Source of the DNA: Patescibacteria group bacterium
GTDB lineage: Bacteria; Patescibacteriota; Minisyncoccia; UBA6257; HR35
Length of the DNA stretch: 42,970 nucleotides
Direction of reading: 5' to 3'
Assembly (NCBI GenBank): GCA_038065795.1
Contig: JBBTQG010000013.1
Coordinates: forward strand, 1 to 42,970
The notes under the pieces are model-generated. The model had not been told where the DNA came from. It saw nothing but the letters and a program-made list of their open reading frames with translations, and did not search any database. The first letter of the stretch is position 1. The number at the start of each line of letters is the position of its first letter. Shown piece after piece: positions 11,703-33,949 of the stretch. Both the position numbers and the translations under genes were made by a program.

Positions 11703-12905
11703 ATGAAATTTAATTACAAGTCTTTTGATAAAGACGGAAATTTTAAGGAAGGAACGATTGAGACAGCTTCAAAAGAAAGCGCTGTTATCGCATTGCAAAA
11801 TCAAGGGTTGATTGTTACATTTATATCTCAGGTAGGAACTAATACAAAATTGCCATATTTTGGAAAAATTTCTTTAAAAGATGTAGTATTTTTTACGCGC
11901 GAGCTTCATTTTTTAGTTCAAGCAAGAATTCCGCTTGACGCCGCTGTAAAAACGTTATCCGAGCAAGTCACAAATATAAAATTTAGAAAAGTGCTAGATG
12001 ATATTTATCAAGATGTTGTTGCTGGGATTTCTCTATCAAAAGCTTTGGGGAAACATAGTATTTTTTCAACTTACTACATAAAAATGGTTCAGATAGGAGA
12101 AGTTTCTGGTTCATTGGACGAAGCAACCGAATATTTAGCAACTCATCTTGAAAATCAAAATAAATTTTTGAGCAAATTAATACAAACACTTATTTATCCG
12201 GTAATTGTTTTATGTGTTTTTTTGGCGACAATGATAACTCTATTTGTCACAGTTATTCCAAGAGTAGCAAAAATTTTTACTGAAAATGATATTCCGATGC
12301 CTGTTATTACAAGAGTGTTCAATTCTTTTTCTGGGTTTTTAATACATAATTGGATGTATCTAGTTATATTTTTTACGGCGTTGATTTATTCAGCAATAGG
12401 ATATTTTAAAACACGGGAAGGAAAAATTTTTTTGTTTAATTTTTTGGATAAGATTCCAATCGTCAACGACGCAGTTAAGACAACCTATCTTTTAAGATTT
12501 CTTGAATCTATGAGTTTTTTAATAAAGGGTGGTTTGCCAATTCCTGAATCATTAAATATTGTTGCGACAAGCGTTGATAATCCTGTTTTTGAAGATGCCT
12601 TAAAGACTATAGCTGAAGAAACAAAAAAAGGAAGCCCTGTATCTTCTGCGTTAAAAGCATTTCCGAATATTTTTACTCCATTAGTAATCCAATCTTTTAT
12701 AACCGGTGAAAAAACAGGAAAATTAAGGGAAATTTTATTTTCAATATCAAATTTTTATTTACAGGAATTAGAAGTTAAAACTTCAACTTTATCGGAAAAT
12801 ATTCAGCCAATTTTAATAGTAATTTTAGCCGCTGGATTAGGGTTTTTGGAAGTGTCTCTTTTGGTTCCTATATTAAATCTTACAAAAGCGGTTCAGAGTT
12901 TTTAG
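11703..12905 (+). CDS. pilC: type IV pilus platform protein PilC (GspF family)
   Basis: 400 aa with two GspF-type repeats and three hydrophobic segments; follows pilB/pilT. Confidence 0.85.
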   Translation: MKFNYKSFDKDGNFKEGTIETASKESAVIALQNQGLIVTFISQVGTNTKLPYFGKISLKDVVFFTRELHFLVQARIPLDAAVKTLSEQVTNIKFRKVLDDIYQDVVAGISLSKALGKHSIFSTYYIKMVQIGEVSGSLDEATEYLATHLENQNKFLSKLIQTLIYPVIVLCVFLATMITLFVTVIPRVAKIFTENDIPMPVITRVFNSFSGFLIHNWMYLVIFFTALIYSAIGYFKTREGKIFLFNFLDKIPIVNDAVKTTYLLRFLESMSFLIKGGLPIPESLNIVATSVDNPVFEDALKTIAEETKKGSPVSSALKAFPNIFTPLVIQSFITGEKTGKLREILFSISNFYLQELEVKTSTLSENIQPILIVILAAGLGFLEVSLLVPILNLTKAVQSF

Positions 12906-12909
12906 TTAA

Positions 12910-12945
12910 CCAAACCACACCCGACGGGTGTGGTTTGGGGGTTTT
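12910..12945 (+). terminator. intrinsic terminator after pilC
   Basis: 13-bp perfect stem CCAAACCACACCC/GGGTGTGGTTTGG with loop GAC, followed by GGGTTTT. Confidence 0.6.
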
Positions 12946-12990
12946 CACGGCGCAATCATTTTAAAAATAGAAGTGAAAGGCGAGCAAATG

Positions 12991-13145: not shown

Positions 13146-13739
13146 ATGAAAAATAAAGGTTTTACGCTCATAGAACTTGCGGTTGTATTGTTGGTTATTG
13201 GAATTTTGGCTGGCATTGTATTAAAAAATGTTGGTTCTCAGGGCTCTCAGGCAAGAGATACAAGAAGAGTTTCGGATTTACGAAATGTTTCAGTCTATCT
13301 TGCGCAATATCTAAGCAAAACAGGAAGTTTCCCTGATACAACAGATACTGATTGGGTAGGTAGTACGGGCACTTTGGCGGCAGCTTTAGTGGATAAGGGC
13401 GTTATTGCCTCGGATTCAGCTTTGCCAAAACCTCCATCAGGAGCAAGTTATCAATATTACGCTTGTACGGATTCAGGTGATAATACCATATCAATCGCTA
13501 ATCATTTTGTTTTAAGGGTTATTTTGGAAGAAGATGACACTAAAAATGCAAGACTTTATGATAGCGCATATAACGGGAGTACTCTTCCTTGGACTACGGG
13601 AGGTTGTGCCGTTAAAACAGGCGGTAGTGTTATAGGCACTCAAGGTTCGCCGGGTCTTGCTCCTTCTGGATCGACATTAGCATTATCTCAGAATATTTCT
13701 TGCTTAAGTAAATCAAAGGAATATTGTTTAATTCAGTAA
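13146..13739 (+). CDS. major type IV pilin
   Basis: Class III signal MKNKG/FTLIELAVVLLVIGILAGIV with Glu at +5; C-terminal Cys pair CLSKSKEYC; flanked by strong hairpins. Confidence 0.85.
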   Translation: MKNKGFTLIELAVVLLVIGILAGIVLKNVGSQGSQARDTRRVSDLRNVSVYLAQYLSKTGSFPDTTDTDWVGSTGTLAAALVDKGVIASDSALPKPPSGASYQYYACTDSGDNTISIANHFVLRVILEEDDTKNARLYDSAYNGSTLPWTTGGCAVKTGGSVIGTQGSPGLAPSGSTLALSQNISCLSKSKEYCLIQ

Positions 13740-13770
13740 AGCTAATTAATAGAAACAACAACTAATCTAA

Positions 13771-13810
13771 CCCAAAAATTCCCACGCCAGTTGGTGTGGG
13801 AATTTTTGGG
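13771..13810 (+). terminator. long hairpin after the pilin gene (terminator/attenuator candidate)
   Basis: CCCAAAAATTCCCACGCC / GGTGTGGGAATTTTTGGG, about 18 bp, loop AGTT; no clear T-tract follows. Confidence 0.45.
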
Positions 13811-13859
13811 TGTAATGAGTATCGCGTATTTTAATGTGTGTTAAAATTAATTCATAATT

Positions 13860-19263: not shown

Positions 19264-20883
19264 ATGCTTTCATTTTTAGAGTTTATTGGGATAAGTTCAA
19301 TAGCCGCGGCTGTTGTTTCTTTAATAACATATATTTTGAAGCAGCCGCAGATTTTAGGATTTCTTGTTTTGGGAGTGTTGATGAGCTCATTTTTTTTAAC
19401 GCAAGTGCCAATAAATTTAATAGAGGACACATCCTTGCTTGGAATAGCGCTTTTACTTTTTTTGATTGGAACTGAACTTAATATATCAAAAATTAAAAAA
19501 ATGGGGAGAGAATCTGCTGTTGTTGGAATTGGTCAAGTTTTAATCACAACAATTCTCGGTTTTTTAATTGCGTCAACGCTCGGTTTTGGCTTGACGGCAT
19601 CGTTAATTCTGGCTCTTGCGTTTTCGTTTAGTTCTACGGTTATTGTTGTAAAATTGATTTCCGATAAAAACGATATAGATTCTCTTTACGGAAGATTGAC
19701 GCTGGGAATTTTATTAATTCAAGATTTAATAGCGATTTTGCTCTTGATTTTATTGGAAGCGAAAAATTTTAATAATTTTATTTCGGCAATTGTATTTTTT
19801 TCTGGACTTTTTATTTTAGGATATTTGTTTTCGCCACGAATTTATAATTATTTCAGAAAAAGTTCAGAGGCGTTATTTTTTTTAAGTCTTGCGTGGGTTT
19901 TTGTATTTATTTTTTCAGCGAAATTTTTTAATTTAGGAGTTGAAATTCCGGCGCTTTTAGCTGGAATTAGCTTAGCGAGTGTTCCGCAGGTACTGGAAAT
20001 TTCAAGACGCATGCGTCCATTAAGAGATTTATTTTTGATTTTTTTCTTTATTAGTCTTGGCTCTCGAATATTTTTTTCAACAGATGTAATTTTGCCAGTT
20101 GCGATTTTTTCAGCATTTGTGTTAATTGGAAAATTGTTGATAATTTATTTTATTTTGAAAATATTAGGATATCAGAACAGAGTCAGTTTTTTTACTGGAA
20201 TTAATTTAGCCCAGATAAGCGAGTTCTCGCTGATTTTAGGAATTTTGTCGGCAAGACTCGGATATATTAATAAAAGCGAACTCGCAATTTTAGGATTGGT
20301 TGGACTTATAACCTTTTTTGCGTCTGCGTATCTAATTACATTTAGCAAAAAGATTTATAATTTTTTGAGAAAATTAAAAACGCAAAAAGAAATAGCTGAT
20401 GAAAGTTTATATGAAAATCATATTGTACTTATAGGTTTTCATAGAATTGGATATATTTTGGCGAATAAATTTAAAAATGATAATTTGTTGATTATAGAAT
20501 TTAATCCAGAGCTTATAAAAGCTTTGGAAAACGAAGGATTTAATTTTATTTACGGAGACATTGTAGATACGGATGTTGTTAAGCGCGCGAATATTGAAAA
20601 AGCAAAATTAGTTATTTCAACGGTGCCACTAGAAGAAGAAAATTTGTTTGTAATTTCAATGGCTAAATCGTATAAAGTTCCTGTAATTGTTACAGCTTTA
20701 AACTCAAAAGACGCGCTTGAATTTTATAAGGCAGGAGCGAACTATGTCATTATCCCCCACTTTCTTGGAGGGGAACATTCATCGGAATTTATCAAAAAAT
20801 TCATAGAAAACCCACAAAATGAAGATATAAAAAATACGCACATAATTGAGATGGAAAAGACCATAAAATTGGGGCATTTTTAA
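19264..20883 (+). CDS. cation:proton antiporter (CPA2/Kef-type) with C-terminal TrkA-N (KTN) domain
   Basis: About 12 hydrophobic segments, then the Rossmann-like HIVLIGFHRIGYILANKF. Confidence 0.8.
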   Translation: MLSFLEFIGISSIAAAVVSLITYILKQPQILGFLVLGVLMSSFFLTQVPINLIEDTSLLGIALLLFLIGTELNISKIKKMGRESAVVGIGQVLITTILGFLIASTLGFGLTASLILALAFSFSSTVIVVKLISDKNDIDSLYGRLTLGILLIQDLIAILLLILLEAKNFNNFISAIVFFSGLFILGYLFSPRIYNYFRKSSEALFFLSLAWVFVFIFSAKFFNLGVEIPALLAGISLASVPQVLEISRRMRPLRDLFLIFFFISLGSRIFFSTDVILPVAIFSAFVLIGKLLIIYFILKILGYQNRVSFFTGINLAQISEFSLILGILSARLGYINKSELAILGLVGLITFFASAYLITFSKKIYNFLRKLKTQKEIADESLYENHIVLIGFHRIGYILANKFKNDNLLIIEFNPELIKALENEGFNFIYGDIVDTDVVKRANIEKAKLVISTVPLEEENLFVISMAKSYKVPVIVTALNSKDALEFYKAGANYVIIPHFLGGEHSSEFIKKFIENPQNEDIKNTHIIEMEKTIKLGHF

Positions 20884-20990
20884 TCGAGCACCAATTGTAA
20901 TATTGAAAAACTAGTGAAAAACGCGCATTATAATTGAAAAAATTTAGGATTGTAATTGTTATTGAAATTATTACAATTGGCGCTCGATTA
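20881..20990. repeat. 110-bp element bounded by 22-bp inverted repeats TAATCGAGCACCAATTGTAATA / TATTACAATTGGCGCTCGATTA (1 mismatch)
   Basis: Arms 20881-20902 and 20969-20990; left arm starts on the TAA stop of the antiporter gene; right arm overlaps the TTATCCACA box. Confidence 0.6.
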
Positions 20991-26729: not shown

Positions 26730-26737
26730 TATCAAAT

Positions 26738-26767
26738 GCCGAAAACTTGATTTTCGGCGATGAAAAT
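26738..26767 (+). repeat. GCCGAAAA-loop-TTTTCGGC hairpin followed by GATGAAAAT (member of a recurring family)
   Basis: 8-bp stem 26738-26745/26751-26758, then GATGAAAAT; directly after efp; no T-tract immediately following. Confidence 0.6.
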
Positions 26768-30291: not shown

Positions 30292-30498
30292 GTGAGTATA
30301 TTCTCCTCGGTCACCGCAGTCCCCGCCCTCCCCAGCGGAGCGGGTCTGCTCATCTCTCACCCCGCCGACCGAGCTGAAAATTTGAAAAGATGCCGAAAAC
30401 AATTTATTGTTTTCGGCGCTGAAAATTTAGTTTCCAGCTTTACAACTCGGACCAATCTCGGCGGGGCTACGAGGCGTGCCCTCGGAGAATTTATTCGC
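30292..30498 (+). ncRNA. candidate structured RNA (unclassified), GC-rich, starting 5 nt after the rpoD stop
   Basis: 15-position closing helix 30292-30306/30484-30498 (1 mismatch, 2 G-U pairs valid only on the + strand); further helices 30309-30317/30474-30480, 30360-30373/30446-30466; apical 11-bp hairpin 30392-30417. Confidence 0.45.
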
Positions 30499-30622: not shown

Positions 30623-32155
30623 ATGGCTAATCAAAAATTTCAAAACAGAACTTTATTTTTTGGAGACAATCTTGAGGTTTTAAGAAAGAAAATTCCAGAT
30701 GAGAGCTTCGACTTAATTTATTTAGACCCGCCTTTTAATTCAAATAGGGATTACAATGTGCTTTTTAAGGAAGGGAAAGTTGACAGTCCCGCGCAAATTG
30801 TAGCATTTGAAGATAGCTGGCATTGGACAGAAGAGGCGGATAAAATTTTCAATGAACTGGTTGGAGTAAAAAAATCAGAAACAGAAATTAATGAAACAAT
30901 CTCTAATTTGATGCTTGCATTGGAAAGATTGATTGGCAAAAACGATGTTTTGGCGTATTTGGTAATGATGACCATTCGTTTAATTGAATTAAAACGAATT
31001 CTTAAAAATACAGGAAGCATTTATTTGCATTGTGATCCAACAGCAAGTCATTATTTAAAAATTGTAATGGATGCGGTGTTTGGAAAGAAAAATTTTAGAA
31101 ATGAAATTATATGGCATTATAAAAGATGGACTGCTGCATCTAATCGTTTTCAGCGAATGCACGATATAATATTTTGGTATACAAAGACTGATAAATATAT
31201 CTTTACTAAACCGCTACAGCCTTATTCTAATCCAGAATGGGTAGAAGATACTGTTAGGGGTATTGTTAAGGGGAAATTAGTTCGTTTAAAGAATGAAGCA
31301 GGAGAATATATTAAAAGACAAAAAGAAAATCTTGGGGTTTTAATGCATGATGTTTGGGAAGATATAAATTTTATTCCACCAACATCCAAAGAACGACTTG
31401 GTTATGCCACTCAAAAACCAGAAGCACTATTAGAACGAATAATCAAGGCGTCTTCTAATGAAGGCGATTGGATTTTGGACCCATTTTGCGGTTGCGGAAC
31501 AACAGTTGCAGTTTCTGAAAAATTAAATCGTAAATGGGTTGGAATTGATATAACCACATTGGCAATAAATTTAATAAAACATCGTATTAACGCGCAATTT
31601 AGAGATAAACAATTCAAAATTTTAGTTGATGGATTGCCAAAAGATATATCAGGAGCAAAAGCGTTATTTAAAAAAGATCCGTTTGAATTTGAATACTGGG
31701 CATTAGATTTAGTTAGCGCTATGCCGTCTCAAAGTAAAACAAAAGAAAAAATGCGCGGAGCTGATAAGGGAATCGATGGAATTATTTCTTTTGTAAAAGG
31801 TTCTAATAATGGTGATTTTACATATGGCAGAATTGTTGTTCAGGTGAAAGGCGGCGGCGTTCAAAGAAAAGATATTGCAACATTAAAGGGCGATATTGAA
31901 AGAGAAAAAGCCGATGGCGGATTATTTATAACATTAGAAGAACCGACCAAACCAATGATTGAAGAGGCGGTAAAATCCGGGAAATTTAAAATTCCGCTTA
32001 TCGCTACAGAATTTCCAAAAATTCAAATTTTAACTATAAAGGATTTATTAAGCGGCAAAAAAATAATTTTACCGTTGGGAGCGGAACCGTACTACAAAAA
32101 AGCGAAAAAAGTTGAAATTTATAATTTCAAACCTAATAATCATTTTACATTTTAA
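30623..32155 (+). CDS. beta-class N6A/N4C DNA methyltransferase fused to a C-terminal Mrr-like (PD-(D/E)xK) nuclease domain
   Basis: Motif IV DLIYLDPPFNSN precedes motif I ILDPFCGCGTTVAVSEKL; C-terminus FEYWALDLV...GADKGIDGIISF...IVVQVKGGG matches the Mrr catalytic core. Confidence 0.75.
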   Translation: MANQKFQNRTLFFGDNLEVLRKKIPDESFDLIYLDPPFNSNRDYNVLFKEGKVDSPAQIVAFEDSWHWTEEADKIFNELVGVKKSETEINETISNLMLALERLIGKNDVLAYLVMMTIRLIELKRILKNTGSIYLHCDPTASHYLKIVMDAVFGKKNFRNEIIWHYKRWTAASNRFQRMHDIIFWYTKTDKYIFTKPLQPYSNPEWVEDTVRGIVKGKLVRLKNEAGEYIKRQKENLGVLMHDVWEDINFIPPTSKERLGYATQKPEALLERIIKASSNEGDWILDPFCGCGTTVAVSEKLNRKWVGIDITTLAINLIKHRINAQFRDKQFKILVDGLPKDISGAKALFKKDPFEFEYWALDLVSAMPSQSKTKEKMRGADKGIDGIISFVKGSNNGDFTYGRIVVQVKGGGVQRKDIATLKGDIEREKADGGLFITLEEPTKPMIEEAVKSGKFKIPLIATEFPKIQILTIKDLLSGKKIILPLGAEPYYKKAKKVEIYNFKPNNHFTF

Positions 32156-32213: not shown

Positions 32214-33299
32214 ATGCTTTATAGAAAATATCGTCCGAAAAATTTTGGCGAAGTGATTGGACAAGATATTATTATTAAAATTTTAAAAAATTTTTTAAAA
32301 AACGAAGCCCAAATTCCACAAGGATATTTATTTACGGGTCAAAGAGGAACTGGAAAAACAACAACAGCGAGAATTTTTGCGAAAGCTTTGAATTGCTCTG
32401 ATTTTAAGGATGAACCCTGCGATAAATGTAATATTTGCGAGTTAATAAATAAGGGTCATTTTTTAGATTTAGTTGAAATTGATGGCGCTTCAAATAATAG
32501 TGTTGATGATATAAGAAATTTAAAAGAGCACATTGGATTTAAGCCAATGCAAGGAAAATATAAAATTTTTATTATTGATGAAGCCCATATGTTATCTCTT
32601 TCTGCTTTCAACGCGTTTTTAAAAACTCTTGAAGAACCCCCCCGCGGAGTTATTTTTGTTATGGCAACAACCGAGCCTGAAAAAATTCCAGCAACAATTT
32701 TATCAAGAGTTCAGAGGTTTGATTTTAGAAGAGCTACCGTAAAAGATATAGTCAAAACATTAAAACAAATTGCTGAAAATGAAAAAATTAAAATTGATGA
32801 TTTGGCGCTTTATCTAATTGCGGAAGAGTCGCACGGTTCGTTTAGGGATGCTGAAGTCATTTTTGAAAAACTTGCGCTTTATGAAAATAATTCAGGCAAA
32901 ATTACAGAAGAATTGGTTGAAGAATTTTTAGGCAAGTTAAGTAATGGGAAAATTTTAGAGTTTTTGGACTTAGTGTTTGAAAAAAATATAGAAAAAAGTC
33001 TAGATTTTATCAGGGAAATTTATCATCAGGGCTTCGATATTATCATTTTTAATCGCAGTATCGTTAGGTTTTTGCGCGAGCTTTTGATTTTGAAAATTCA
33101 TCCAAATTGGAAAGCGCAACTCGAAAGGGTTTATCCGGAAGAAATTTTGGAAAAAATGATTAATATAGCGGGAAAAATTTCAATTGAAAATCTTAAAAAA
33201 TCTTTAAAAACATTTTATGAAGCTGACAATCTTTTAAAAAGAGAACCTCCGATTTTGACTTTACCAATAGAAATGGCGATAGTTGAATTGACGGTATAA
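32214..33299 (+). CDS. dnaX: DNA polymerase III subunit gamma/tau (short form)
   Basis: YRPKNFGEVIGQ, Walker A GQRGTGKTT, zinc module CDKCNIC, IIDEAHML, SRVQRF. Confidence 0.9.
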   Translation: MLYRKYRPKNFGEVIGQDIIIKILKNFLKNEAQIPQGYLFTGQRGTGKTTTARIFAKALNCSDFKDEPCDKCNICELINKGHFLDLVEIDGASNNSVDDIRNLKEHIGFKPMQGKYKIFIIDEAHMLSLSAFNAFLKTLEEPPRGVIFVMATTEPEKIPATILSRVQRFDFRRATVKDIVKTLKQIAENEKIKIDDLALYLIAEESHGSFRDAEVIFEKLALYENNSGKITEELVEEFLGKLSNGKILEFLDLVFEKNIEKSLDFIREIYHQGFDIIIFNRSIVRFLRELLILKIHPNWKAQLERVYPEEILEKMINIAGKISIENLKKSLKTFYEADNLLKREPPILTLPIEMAIVELTV

Positions 33300-33574
33300 T
33301 CGCAAATAATTTACCCTCAGCCACCGGTTGTCGTCTCGCTCCAGTGGCGAGCCGCAACCTCTTGTCTCGGTCATTCTGTCGAGCCGACTTATTGAATTAT
33401 GATTTACGGCTCGAACCAAGCCAGAAGCCGGAAACTGATTTTTCGGCGTCGAAAATGACAAACCATTTTCGGCATGACCTCCGACAATGCCGAAAAGCCA
33501 AAAAAATTTTTTGACTTTTCGGCGATGAAAATCAGGTTTTCATCTGGCTTCGGACAAATTATTTGCGATTATAC
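33294..33574 (+). ncRNA. candidate structured RNA or MITE-like element bounded by a perfect 19-bp inverted repeat
   Basis: GTATAATCGCAAATAATTT 33294-33312 pairs with 33556-33574; GC-rich core with helices 33335-33351, 33379-33386/33407-33414, 33418-33425/33543-33550, 33466-33475/33487-33496; strand uncertain. Confidence 0.4.
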
Positions 33575-33615
33575 AAATTTTTTTAGAAATAATTGTATAA
33601 TTATATGTAGATAAT

Positions 33616-33912: not shown

Positions 33913-33949
33913 GCCAAAAAATGATACATCATTTTTTGGCGCTGAAAAC
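33913..33949 (+). repeat. GCCAAAAAATGA-TACA-TCATTTTTTGGC hairpin followed by GCTGAAAAC (variant member of the hairpin family)
   Basis: 12-bp perfect stem 33913-33924/33929-33940; GCTGAAAAC 33941-33949 can also pair with GTTTTCAGC 33970-33978. Confidence 0.55.

Follow-up and report, generated by a model that had tools for sequence, protein, structure and literature searches.

Diverged copies of a structure-conserved three-way-junction element after dnaX and rpoD in a narrow Parcubacteria clade

The DNA analysed here, referred to below as the window, comprises positions 1 to 42,970 of contig JBBTQG010000013.1 (assembly GCA_038065795.1), which is assigned to the Parcubacteria/Patescibacteria through the homologues of its DnaX and RpoD proteins. 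Identical contigs occur in the Hainich groundwater assemblies and in the metagenome-assembled genome GCA_964360415.1. In this window, dnaX (32214-33299) encodes a clamp-loader subunit of 361 aa with domains I-III only, and its stop codon lies within the left arm of a palindromic element, W1 (33294-33574). The tRNA-Gln gene starts at 33615, 40 nt 3′ of W1, the distance given in an earlier description of the locus made from the sequence alone (the sequence-only reading). A second GC-rich island, W2 (30292-30498, plus strand), is found 3 kb upstream of W1 and starts 4 nt past the stop codon of rpoD. As described below, W1 and W2 are diverged copies of an undescribed, structure-conserved three-way-junction family that has a core of ~175 nt and is restricted to a narrow Parcubacteria clade. 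GC content rises to 50-60% in the core of W1, compared with 31.6% across the window. The earlier description of a GC-rich, self-complementary element holds for the core, while a 107-nt arm inside W1 (33432-33538) is not GC-rich.

W1 is closed by a perfect inverted repeat over the dnaX stop codon, as the sequence-only reading had noticed. The 19-nt sequence GTATAATCGCAAATAATTT (33294-33312) is fully complementary to 33556-33574, and two matches of this kind appeared in none of 100 shuffles. When two mismatches are allowed, the arms reach 30 nt with 87% complementarity, which makes them the longest inverted repeat of the window. The plus-strand fold of W1 has an energy of -124.2 kcal/mol (z = -10.7), and none of 200 shuffled sequences was equally stable; the minus-strand fold has a z-score of -9.0. 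On the plus strand, to which all of the following positions refer, helix P1 pairs 33294-33316 with 33552-33574 and includes both the perfect arm (33294-33312) and the dnaX TAA (33297-33299). It is followed by a 2x2 internal loop, with halves UC at 33317-18 and UC at 33550-51, and by helix P2, formed by AGCCAC (33319-24) and CUGGCU (33544-49). A junction C (33325) then leads into hairpin PA; the motif CACCG consists of the end of P2, this C and the following base. PA spans 34 nt (33326-33359), has the loop UCCAGUG (33340-46) and is the best-conserved part of the locus; the CTCGC/GCGAG complementarity noted earlier is present at 33335-39/33347-51. Junction strand J2 (33360-65) separates PA from hairpin PB (within 33360-33431). 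The outer stem of PB pairs 33367-78 with 33422-31 and its inner stem pairs 33379-86 with 33407-14; the apical loop spans 33387-33406, and a 7-nt bulge, ACCAAGC, lies at 33415-21. The inner stem is the TCGAGCCG/CGGCTCGA pair of the sequence-only reading, found exactly where it had been placed. Next come the lineage-specific 107-nt arm (33432-33538), whose base helix, 33432-42/33528-38, agrees with the bulged helix reported near 33431-43/33527-40, and then J3 (33539-43) and the 3′ strands of P2 and P1. A run of seven T (33578-33584) starts 3 nt past P1 and may represent a terminator-like end of a plus-strand transcript.

One of the pairings proposed earlier, AAGCCAGA (33418-25) with TCTGGCTT (33543-50), is present as complementarity, but the comparative data favour AGCCAC (33319-24) over AAGCCAGA as the partner of TCTGGCT (33544-49). 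The bulge region of PB repeats the 5′ strand of P2 (AGCCA), which provides an alternative partner for the 3′ strand of P2. This alternative (33418-33425/33543-33550) amounts to 8 bp in W1 and, in the orthologue described next, to 6 bp including two G-U pairs (L072 ~2401-2406/2430-2435).

Only two close species were found, namely L072 (JGI 3300045950; DnaX 75% identical) and the species represented by the short Logan contigs L089/L171 (DnaX 77%, RpoD 79%), which is the closest relative by protein identity. L072 keeps the order dnaX, element, tRNA-Gln, although its element measures only ~150 nt (fold z = -6.4). In the alignment, W1 33432-33538 is absent in L072 and each of the remaining W1 segments is matched there. 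Conservation is highest in the block 33318-33362 (CAGYCACCGGTTRTCGTCTCGCTCCRGYGGCGAGCCGCRACCTCT), which contains PA and is identical at 40 of 45 positions; for the rest of the locus, identity is 68% in tRNA-Gln, 76% in dnaX DNA, 45% in the spacer and 60% in the whole core. The inner stem of PB, by contrast, has changed wholly in sequence and kept its pairing (UCGAGCCG/CGGCUCGA in W1 versus CCCCGC/GCGGGG in L072). Within the population itself, eight contigs are identical over a 470-nt region save for one single-nucleotide polymorphism, 33388 C>T (L064), at an unpaired position in the PB apical loop.

W2, which the sequence-only reading had missed, was found by tracing the GCCGAAAA motif. It has the same architecture (fold z = -7.1), although the cores of W1 and W2 are only 56% identical. 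Its parts, all on the plus strand, are P1 (30292-306/30484-98), the UC loops, P2 (30309-14/30476-81), PA (30316-49) and PB (30353-30474). The bulge of PB reads ACCAAUC (30451-57), and the PB apical loop carries an inserted repeat module (30390-30426). W1, W2 and the L072 copy share a common plan, which consists of a P1 of 15-23 bp, the UC/UC 2x2 loop, a 6-bp P2 (RGYCAC/GUGRCY), a single unpaired C, PA, a short pyrimidine-rich junction, PB (outer stem of ~10 bp, inner stem of 5-8 bp and the 7-nt bulge ACCAAKC on the 3′ side) and the return to P2 and P1. P1 is homologous in L072 and W2 with a changed sequence, and both stems of PB covary fully across the three copies, in all of which the bulge is invariant in position. 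In addition, the PA loop UCCRGYGG is kept in all four copies when a partial copy after rpoD in L072 is included.

When the three full cores, which come from two species, are submitted to RNAalifold, the same architecture is recovered, with 52 consensus pairs, 23 of which show double compensatory changes. Paired cells amount to 90.1%, compared with 33-46% when the partners are slid by 1-3 columns, and the observed covariation was reached in none of 500 shuffles. A covariance model built from W1 (insert removed, apical loop trimmed) and the L072 copy, and thus not including W2, recovers W2 at full length with 67.1 bits (E = 6e-14). The same model yields the fourth, partial copy after rpoD in L072 with 30.7 bits, convincing in its 5′ half only. 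No further copies were detected by the model in the window with filters off, where the other low scores are simple hairpins on both strands, and nothing significant was detected in 463 kb of unrelated control loci. Each of the four copies is on the same strand as the gene that precedes it, and W1 and W2 start at, or at most 4 nt from, the stop codon of a core gene (dnaX, rpoD) in the orientation of that gene. The stems are kept by compensatory changes while neutral DNA between the orthologues is saturated, which implies that selection has acted on the structure in place. On these comparative grounds, with homologues and compensatory changes both found, the element is a new family of putative structured RNA. 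The earlier note had opposed a single syntenic RNA gene to a multicopy mobile element; the syntenic orthologue with covariation was borne out, while the supposition of a single copy was not. For a possible pseudoknot that would join the PA loop to the PB bulge, only GG/CC is constant, and no covariation accompanies it. Coding readings were rejected, since the open reading frames (ORFs) of W2 and of the L072 rpoD copy place CACCG in different frames, and the minus-strand ORF that covers W1 is interrupted by a TGA in L072 (our own translation).

The arm that L072 lacks has a different origin. It is assembled from complete and incomplete copies of one hairpin unit, ATGCCGAAAA-loop-TTTTCGGCG(A/C)TGAAAAT, and closes on itself through its base helix. 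The 17-nt tail of this repeat, TTTTYGGCGNYGAAAAY, is present in five copies on the plus strand of the window, compared with 0.1 expected, and this count was reached in none of 100 shuffles. Hairpin units lie at 26736-67, 30390-426, 33486-532 and 33913-49. The first of these (26736-26767, plus strand) is a free-standing copy, ATGCCGAAAA-loop-TTTTCGGCGATGAAAAT, directly after the EF-P gene, and the last (33913-33949, plus strand) is a variant, GCCAAAAAA-loop-TTTTTTGGCGCTGAAAAC. The consensus reads GCCRAAAA-loop-TTTTYGGCG(A/C)TGAAAAY, and its sites also cover 33436-33532. A further copy is present in a more distant relative (L075:1179-1195), and related hairpins in reverse orientation were seen by eye after dnaX in the closest relative (L089:1150-1210). 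The repeat of which the arm is made is thus a short imperfect palindrome that recurs between genes far above chance, as do repeats of the REP (repetitive extragenic palindromic) and BIME (bacterial interspersed mosaic element) types. Insertions of the repeat are found only at peripheral sites, the junction in W1 and the apical loop in W2, as expected if the core must stay intact.

The sequence-only reading had correctly counted three copies of TTTTCGGC and one of GCCGAAAA. All of them lie within this arm, and their 3:1 imbalance arises because repeat copies are nested. Since the arm is absent in the orthologue, the arrangement of TTTTCGGC and GCCGAAAA is no conserved switch, and the switch-like reading proposed earlier is not supported. 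W1 is therefore a mosaic of a core and a later-inserted 107-nt repeat arm that produces the apparent switch. As for the pairing itself, the TTTTC of the repeat may pair upstream with GCCGAAAA or downstream with GAAAA. More generally, “competing hairpins” in a single sequence can be merely nested copies of a dispersed repeat.

Known classes were searched for. At the gathering threshold, tRNA-Gln is the sole Rfam 15 match at the locus, and at E < 10 nothing relevant is retrieved for W1, W2 or the L072 copy. ARAGORN reports no transfer-messenger RNA (tmRNA); together, the Rfam and ARAGORN matches are tRNA-Gln and tRNA-Arg only. Inspection of both strands by eye revealed no signal recognition particle (SRP) helix-8, RNase P P4, tmRNA or 6S motifs, in agreement with the earlier statement on the first, second and third of these, and a T-arm-like sequence on the minus strand, GGTTCGAGCC, forms no T-arm. 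A relationship with 6S RNA was rejected because all three copies form a tight three-way junction in which each junction strand leaves 1-6 nt unpaired and because RF00013 gives no match. In intrinsic terminators, a U-run starts 0-2 nt past a G+C-rich stem; in W1, the T7 run starts 3 nt past P1. The placement typical of a riboswitch, within the 5′ leaders of one class of genes, was rejected too, given that the 3′ neighbours are inconsistent: tRNA-Gln with its own promoter-like sequence, a methylase-Mrr gene, and dnaX after a 430-nt spacer. This promoter-like sequence was read by eye 3′ of the element in the W1 and L072 loci, and the consensus scan does not list it.

The features of a miniature inverted-repeat transposable element (MITE) were also examined. 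The termini of W1 (GTATAATCGC.../...GCGATTATAC) are unrelated to those of W2 (GTGAGTATATTC.../...GAATTTATTCGC), and no flanking direct repeat that could represent a target-site duplication was seen at W1, W2 or the L072 copy. TA/TA at W1 is indistinguishable from the palindrome itself and is missing at the other copies. With filters off, the 43-kb window contains no near-identical copies, only the two diverged ones. Nor can the inverted repeat be wholly inserted DNA, since GGTATAA is the native end of dnaX, identical in L089, where a different sequence follows; the outer 6 bp of the W1 left arm are native dnaX codons. These observations do not support the simple MITE contemplated in the sequence-only reading. 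Searches of wider collections were similarly negative. A genome-collection scan with DnaX gave relatives at ≤48% identity only. A metagenome scan with TCTCGCTCCNNNGGCGAGCCG gave 72 matches, all by chance and in GC-rich contigs, in a collection that does not include the L072 contig. Scans of viral collections with three patterns gave chance matches or none, and BLASTN against phages and plasmids gave nothing. Literature searches on structured RNAs of the candidate phyla radiation (CPR) and Parcubacteria, and on surveys of GC-rich intergenic regions, yielded no account of the motif.

The distribution of the element was followed by synteny through the DnaX and RpoD homologues. One orthologue, that of L072, was found, and relatives at ≤63% DnaX identity lack the element. 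In relatives at ~60-63% DnaX identity, dnaG, rpoD and dnaX are contiguous and another gene directly follows dnaX; thus, the elements coincide with the break-up of this block into separate units. Taken together with the copies after rpoD, discussed below, the family has a gain-and-loss history. In the closest relative, the region after dnaX is readable only to ~0-120 nt. Ten independent Logan contigs of this species (L089, L090, L163-L170) all start 53 nt before dnaX and end ~0-120 nt after it, which fits assemblies interrupted at the element by repeats or by strain variation. As for the neighbouring genes, the 361-aa DnaX comprises the ATPase, the lid and domain III without the tau C-terminal domains, and its close homologues all measure 358-373 aa. 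Between W2 and dnaX, 30623-32155 encodes a fused N6/N4 DNA methylase-Mrr restriction endonuclease. In relatives, this slot holds only spacer, or rpoD directly adjoins dnaX, and in the population variant L064 the gene is split into ORFs of 98 and 414 aa.

Tentatively, and at somewhat less than an even chance, we favour the core as a lineage-restricted 3′-end structure of the rpoD and dnaX messages, with transcription, plus-strand orientation and role all inferred. Folded at the 3′ end, the core would be a compact structure of high stability and would mark where the transcription unit stops, and it may have arisen when the dnaG-rpoD-dnaX block was split. In W1, P1 and the T7 run could end transcription or block 3′ exonucleases; a P1 of ~20 bp would also be a plausible RNase III substrate, and PA might serve as a sequence-specific recognition site for a partner. 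The genomic context leans towards the plus strand, given the orientation of all four copies, the T7 run after W1 and the promoter-like sequence, read by eye, that tRNA-Gln has of its own past the element.

Several observations weigh against this 3′-end structure. Thermodynamics does not separate the strands, as the consensus energy is -60.5 for plus and -59.5 for minus and the results per copy are mixed. Read on the minus strand, the invariant UC/UC loop is GA/GA, and tandem sheared G-A pairs are a far commoner, stabilizing RNA motif. W2 lacks an adjacent U-run, and the consensus terminator scan called neither copy. Furthermore, ordinary hairpin-plus-T terminators exist elsewhere in the window, so that a three-way junction of 175 nt far exceeds what termination needs. 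In the closest relative there is no copy after rpoD, just an AT-rich spacer of ~150 nt to dnaX, and the copy after rpoD in L072 is truncated to its 5′ half, so that this site can do without the element. Finally, there are three full copies, from two species only. With regard to conventional 3′ hairpins, the window contains a hairpin-plus-TTTT terminator at 12905-12950, after an ORF ending at 12905, and a hairpin with 29-nt arms at 13761-13820, after an ORF ending at 13739, which indicates that such structures are used elsewhere in this genome.

The conservation of the loop, the bulge and PA exceeds the needs of a terminator and counts against a purely passive role. It is possible, though on balance rather unlikely, that the core represents a new functional RNA class of this Parcubacteria clade. 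Two paralogues would then be kept where rpoD and dnaX end, and the nearly invariant PA, the loop and the bulge would form a specific binding or catalytic centre; one possibility within this reading is a protein-binding or self-processing module that uncouples the former dnaG-rpoD-dnaX block. Somewhat less probable is a family of independent, trans-acting small RNA (sRNA) genes, possibly encoded on the minus strand, released for instance by RNase III cleavage in P1 and making a specific contact with a protein or RNA through PA. A 45-nt PA block conserved above the neighbouring tRNA gene would fit such a gene, as would loop and bulge motifs suggestive of a tertiary fold or binding surface. Its minus-strand version would agree with the tandem GA/GA loop, with a minimum free energy that is slightly better on the minus strand for all three copies, and with the best promoter-like site of the region, which lies on the minus strand at 33629-33600 (10 of 12 matches), just upstream of W1 in that orientation. 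Nevertheless, inspection of L072 and W2 showed no visible conservation of this promoter, and the G-U pairs outnumber the A-C mismatches by 11 to 5 in the plus orientation, in a structure itself derived on the plus strand. Moreover, the conserved segments outside the helices are rich in A/C on the plus strand and in G/U on the minus strand, and the closest relative lacks the rpoD-linked copy.

The patchy presence of the element (absence after rpoD in the closest relative, truncation in L072, absence in the next-closest genomes) would fit a non-autonomous mobile or repetitive DNA element, one without a host role and of the MITE, ERIC (enterobacterial repetitive intergenic consensus) or BIME kind, whose palindrome would serve mobilization or result from processes at the DNA level. 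We regard this as improbable, although at least two copies lie within 3.3 kb, both intergenic and right after stop codons, and a second, dispersed repeat is nested in both. The perfect 19-bp Watson-Crick pairing in P1 of W1, which has no wobble, the equal folding of both strands and the contigs of the closest relative that all stop shortly after dnaX also point that way. What argues against it is the compensatory change in stems between orthologues whose neutral DNA is saturated, along with copies that share 56% identity and no termini, a left arm whose outer 6 bp belong to dnaX even in a relative with a different downstream sequence, the lack of visible flanking direct repeats and the lack of matches in the phage, plasmid and viral collections. 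A still smaller chance is given to an RNA that senses a ligand or cleaves itself, either as a riboswitch-like switch, including the one based on alternative pairing of GCCGAAAA, or as a new small ribozyme. The three-way junction combines variable peripheral stems with conserved nucleotides in loop, bulge and junction, as is typical of aptamers and small ribozymes, small self-cleaving ribozymes have a similarly multicopy and patchy distribution, and AAGCCAGA/TCTGGCTT competes with P2 in W1, as does a weaker AAGCUG/UGGCUU, read by eye, in L072. However, this competing pair is absent in W2, the GCCGAAAA/TTTTCGGC pairings sit in an insert that the orthologue does not have, the downstream gene differs from copy to copy, no Rfam riboswitch or ribozyme appears at E < 10, and the junction contains no hammerhead core motifs (CUGANGA, GAAA). 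As for a neutral palindrome or chance structure, which the sequence-only reading had kept in view, low-complexity inverted repeats are common in AT-rich genomes; even so, the fold stability of W1, the 19-mer pair unmatched in shuffles, and above all the compensatory changes in orthologue and paralogue and the model search refute it, leaving a negligible probability.

ERIC (also called IRU) and BIME sequences of enterobacteria are non-coding, imperfectly palindromic intergenic elements that lie inside or at the ends of transcription units and fold as long stem-loops. Versions enlarged by internal insertions exist, as do mosaics with smaller REP-type hairpins, and the copies are numerous and share their sequence. 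The present element resembles them as an intergenic palindrome with an internal insertion and a nested-repeat mosaic, which is directly visible here. It differs from them in having two copies in 43 kb that are 56% identical, in the conservation of structure, in being branched and in its specific loop and bulge motifs. MITEs such as the Correia elements of Neisseria also have terminal inverted repeats and are non-coding, gene-adjacent and capable of being co-transcribed; here, in contrast, there are no common termini, target-site duplications or near-identical copies, and the left arm is partly host coding sequence. Terminators and the RNase III-processed stems at operon ends share with W1 a long, near-perfect basal helix 3′ of a coding region, followed by the T7 run, but the element is far larger and branched, conserves internal motifs, and in W2 has no U-run. 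6S RNA is the only widespread bacterial RNA known to be often present as two paralogues, and it forms a rod with a large central bubble. Its roughly comparable size, long closing stem and two diverged copies, here one beside rpoD, invite comparison, but a tight three-way junction without a central bubble is predicted for the element, and neither RF00013 nor its relatives are retrieved at E < 10.

Surveys of GC-rich intergenic regions (GC-IGRs) recover orphan structured RNA motifs from AT-rich genomes wherever such regions are long (PMC6429828, PMC8632094, PMC11109978). With such motifs the element has in common a GC-rich island in a genome of 31.6% GC, a multi-stem junction, covariation and a narrow phylogenetic range, the very features on which those surveys rely, while it differs in lying 3′ rather than 5′ of genes, in having a paralogue a few kb away and in lacking an Rfam 15 match. 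In the two of these three surveys that were searched for them, dnaX, rpoD, Parcubacteria and candidate phyla are unmentioned. By analogy, the closest functional resemblance would be to transcribed intergenic repeats (ERIC, BIME mosaics) and to the orphan motifs of GC-IGRs.

The element is a small candidate (~150 nt in its minimal form) with a defined consensus structure and two paralogues beside genes of replication and transcription, and its PA hairpin is under stronger constraint than the neighbouring tRNA gene. To our knowledge, almost nothing is known of the non-coding RNAs of CPR bacteria beyond the universal ones. Should the element prove to be a functional RNA, it would offer a handle on the control of gene expression in organisms not culturable on their own. 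Should it prove to be a structured repeat, it would show, together with the nested 17-nt hairpin repeat, how reduced genomes still acquire and keep mosaic intergenic elements.

Other structured sites were seen in the window and its relatives. At 20881-20990, a 22-nt inverted repeat with 95% complementarity starts from the TAA of a gene for a Na+/H+ exchanger-TrkA protein and surrounds AT-rich DNA (z = -5.85). The TAATCG termini that this hairpin was said to share with W1 are merely a stop codon plus 3 nt, and its kinship with the family was rejected, since the family model gives it 8.9 bits (E = 2.5). At 340-455, a GC-rich island (≤61%) contains two copies of CGCGTGAGTCCGCG flanking a GC-rich hairpin (z = -2.65), with no Rfam match at the gathering threshold. 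Lastly, the AT-rich spacer upstream of dnaX in L072 (L072:1040-1130) carries two copies of TTTTCAGCCGTGAAATT, and the equivalent spacer of the closest relative carries a similar sequence, GAAAATTCGCTGAAAAT (L171:4240-4270).

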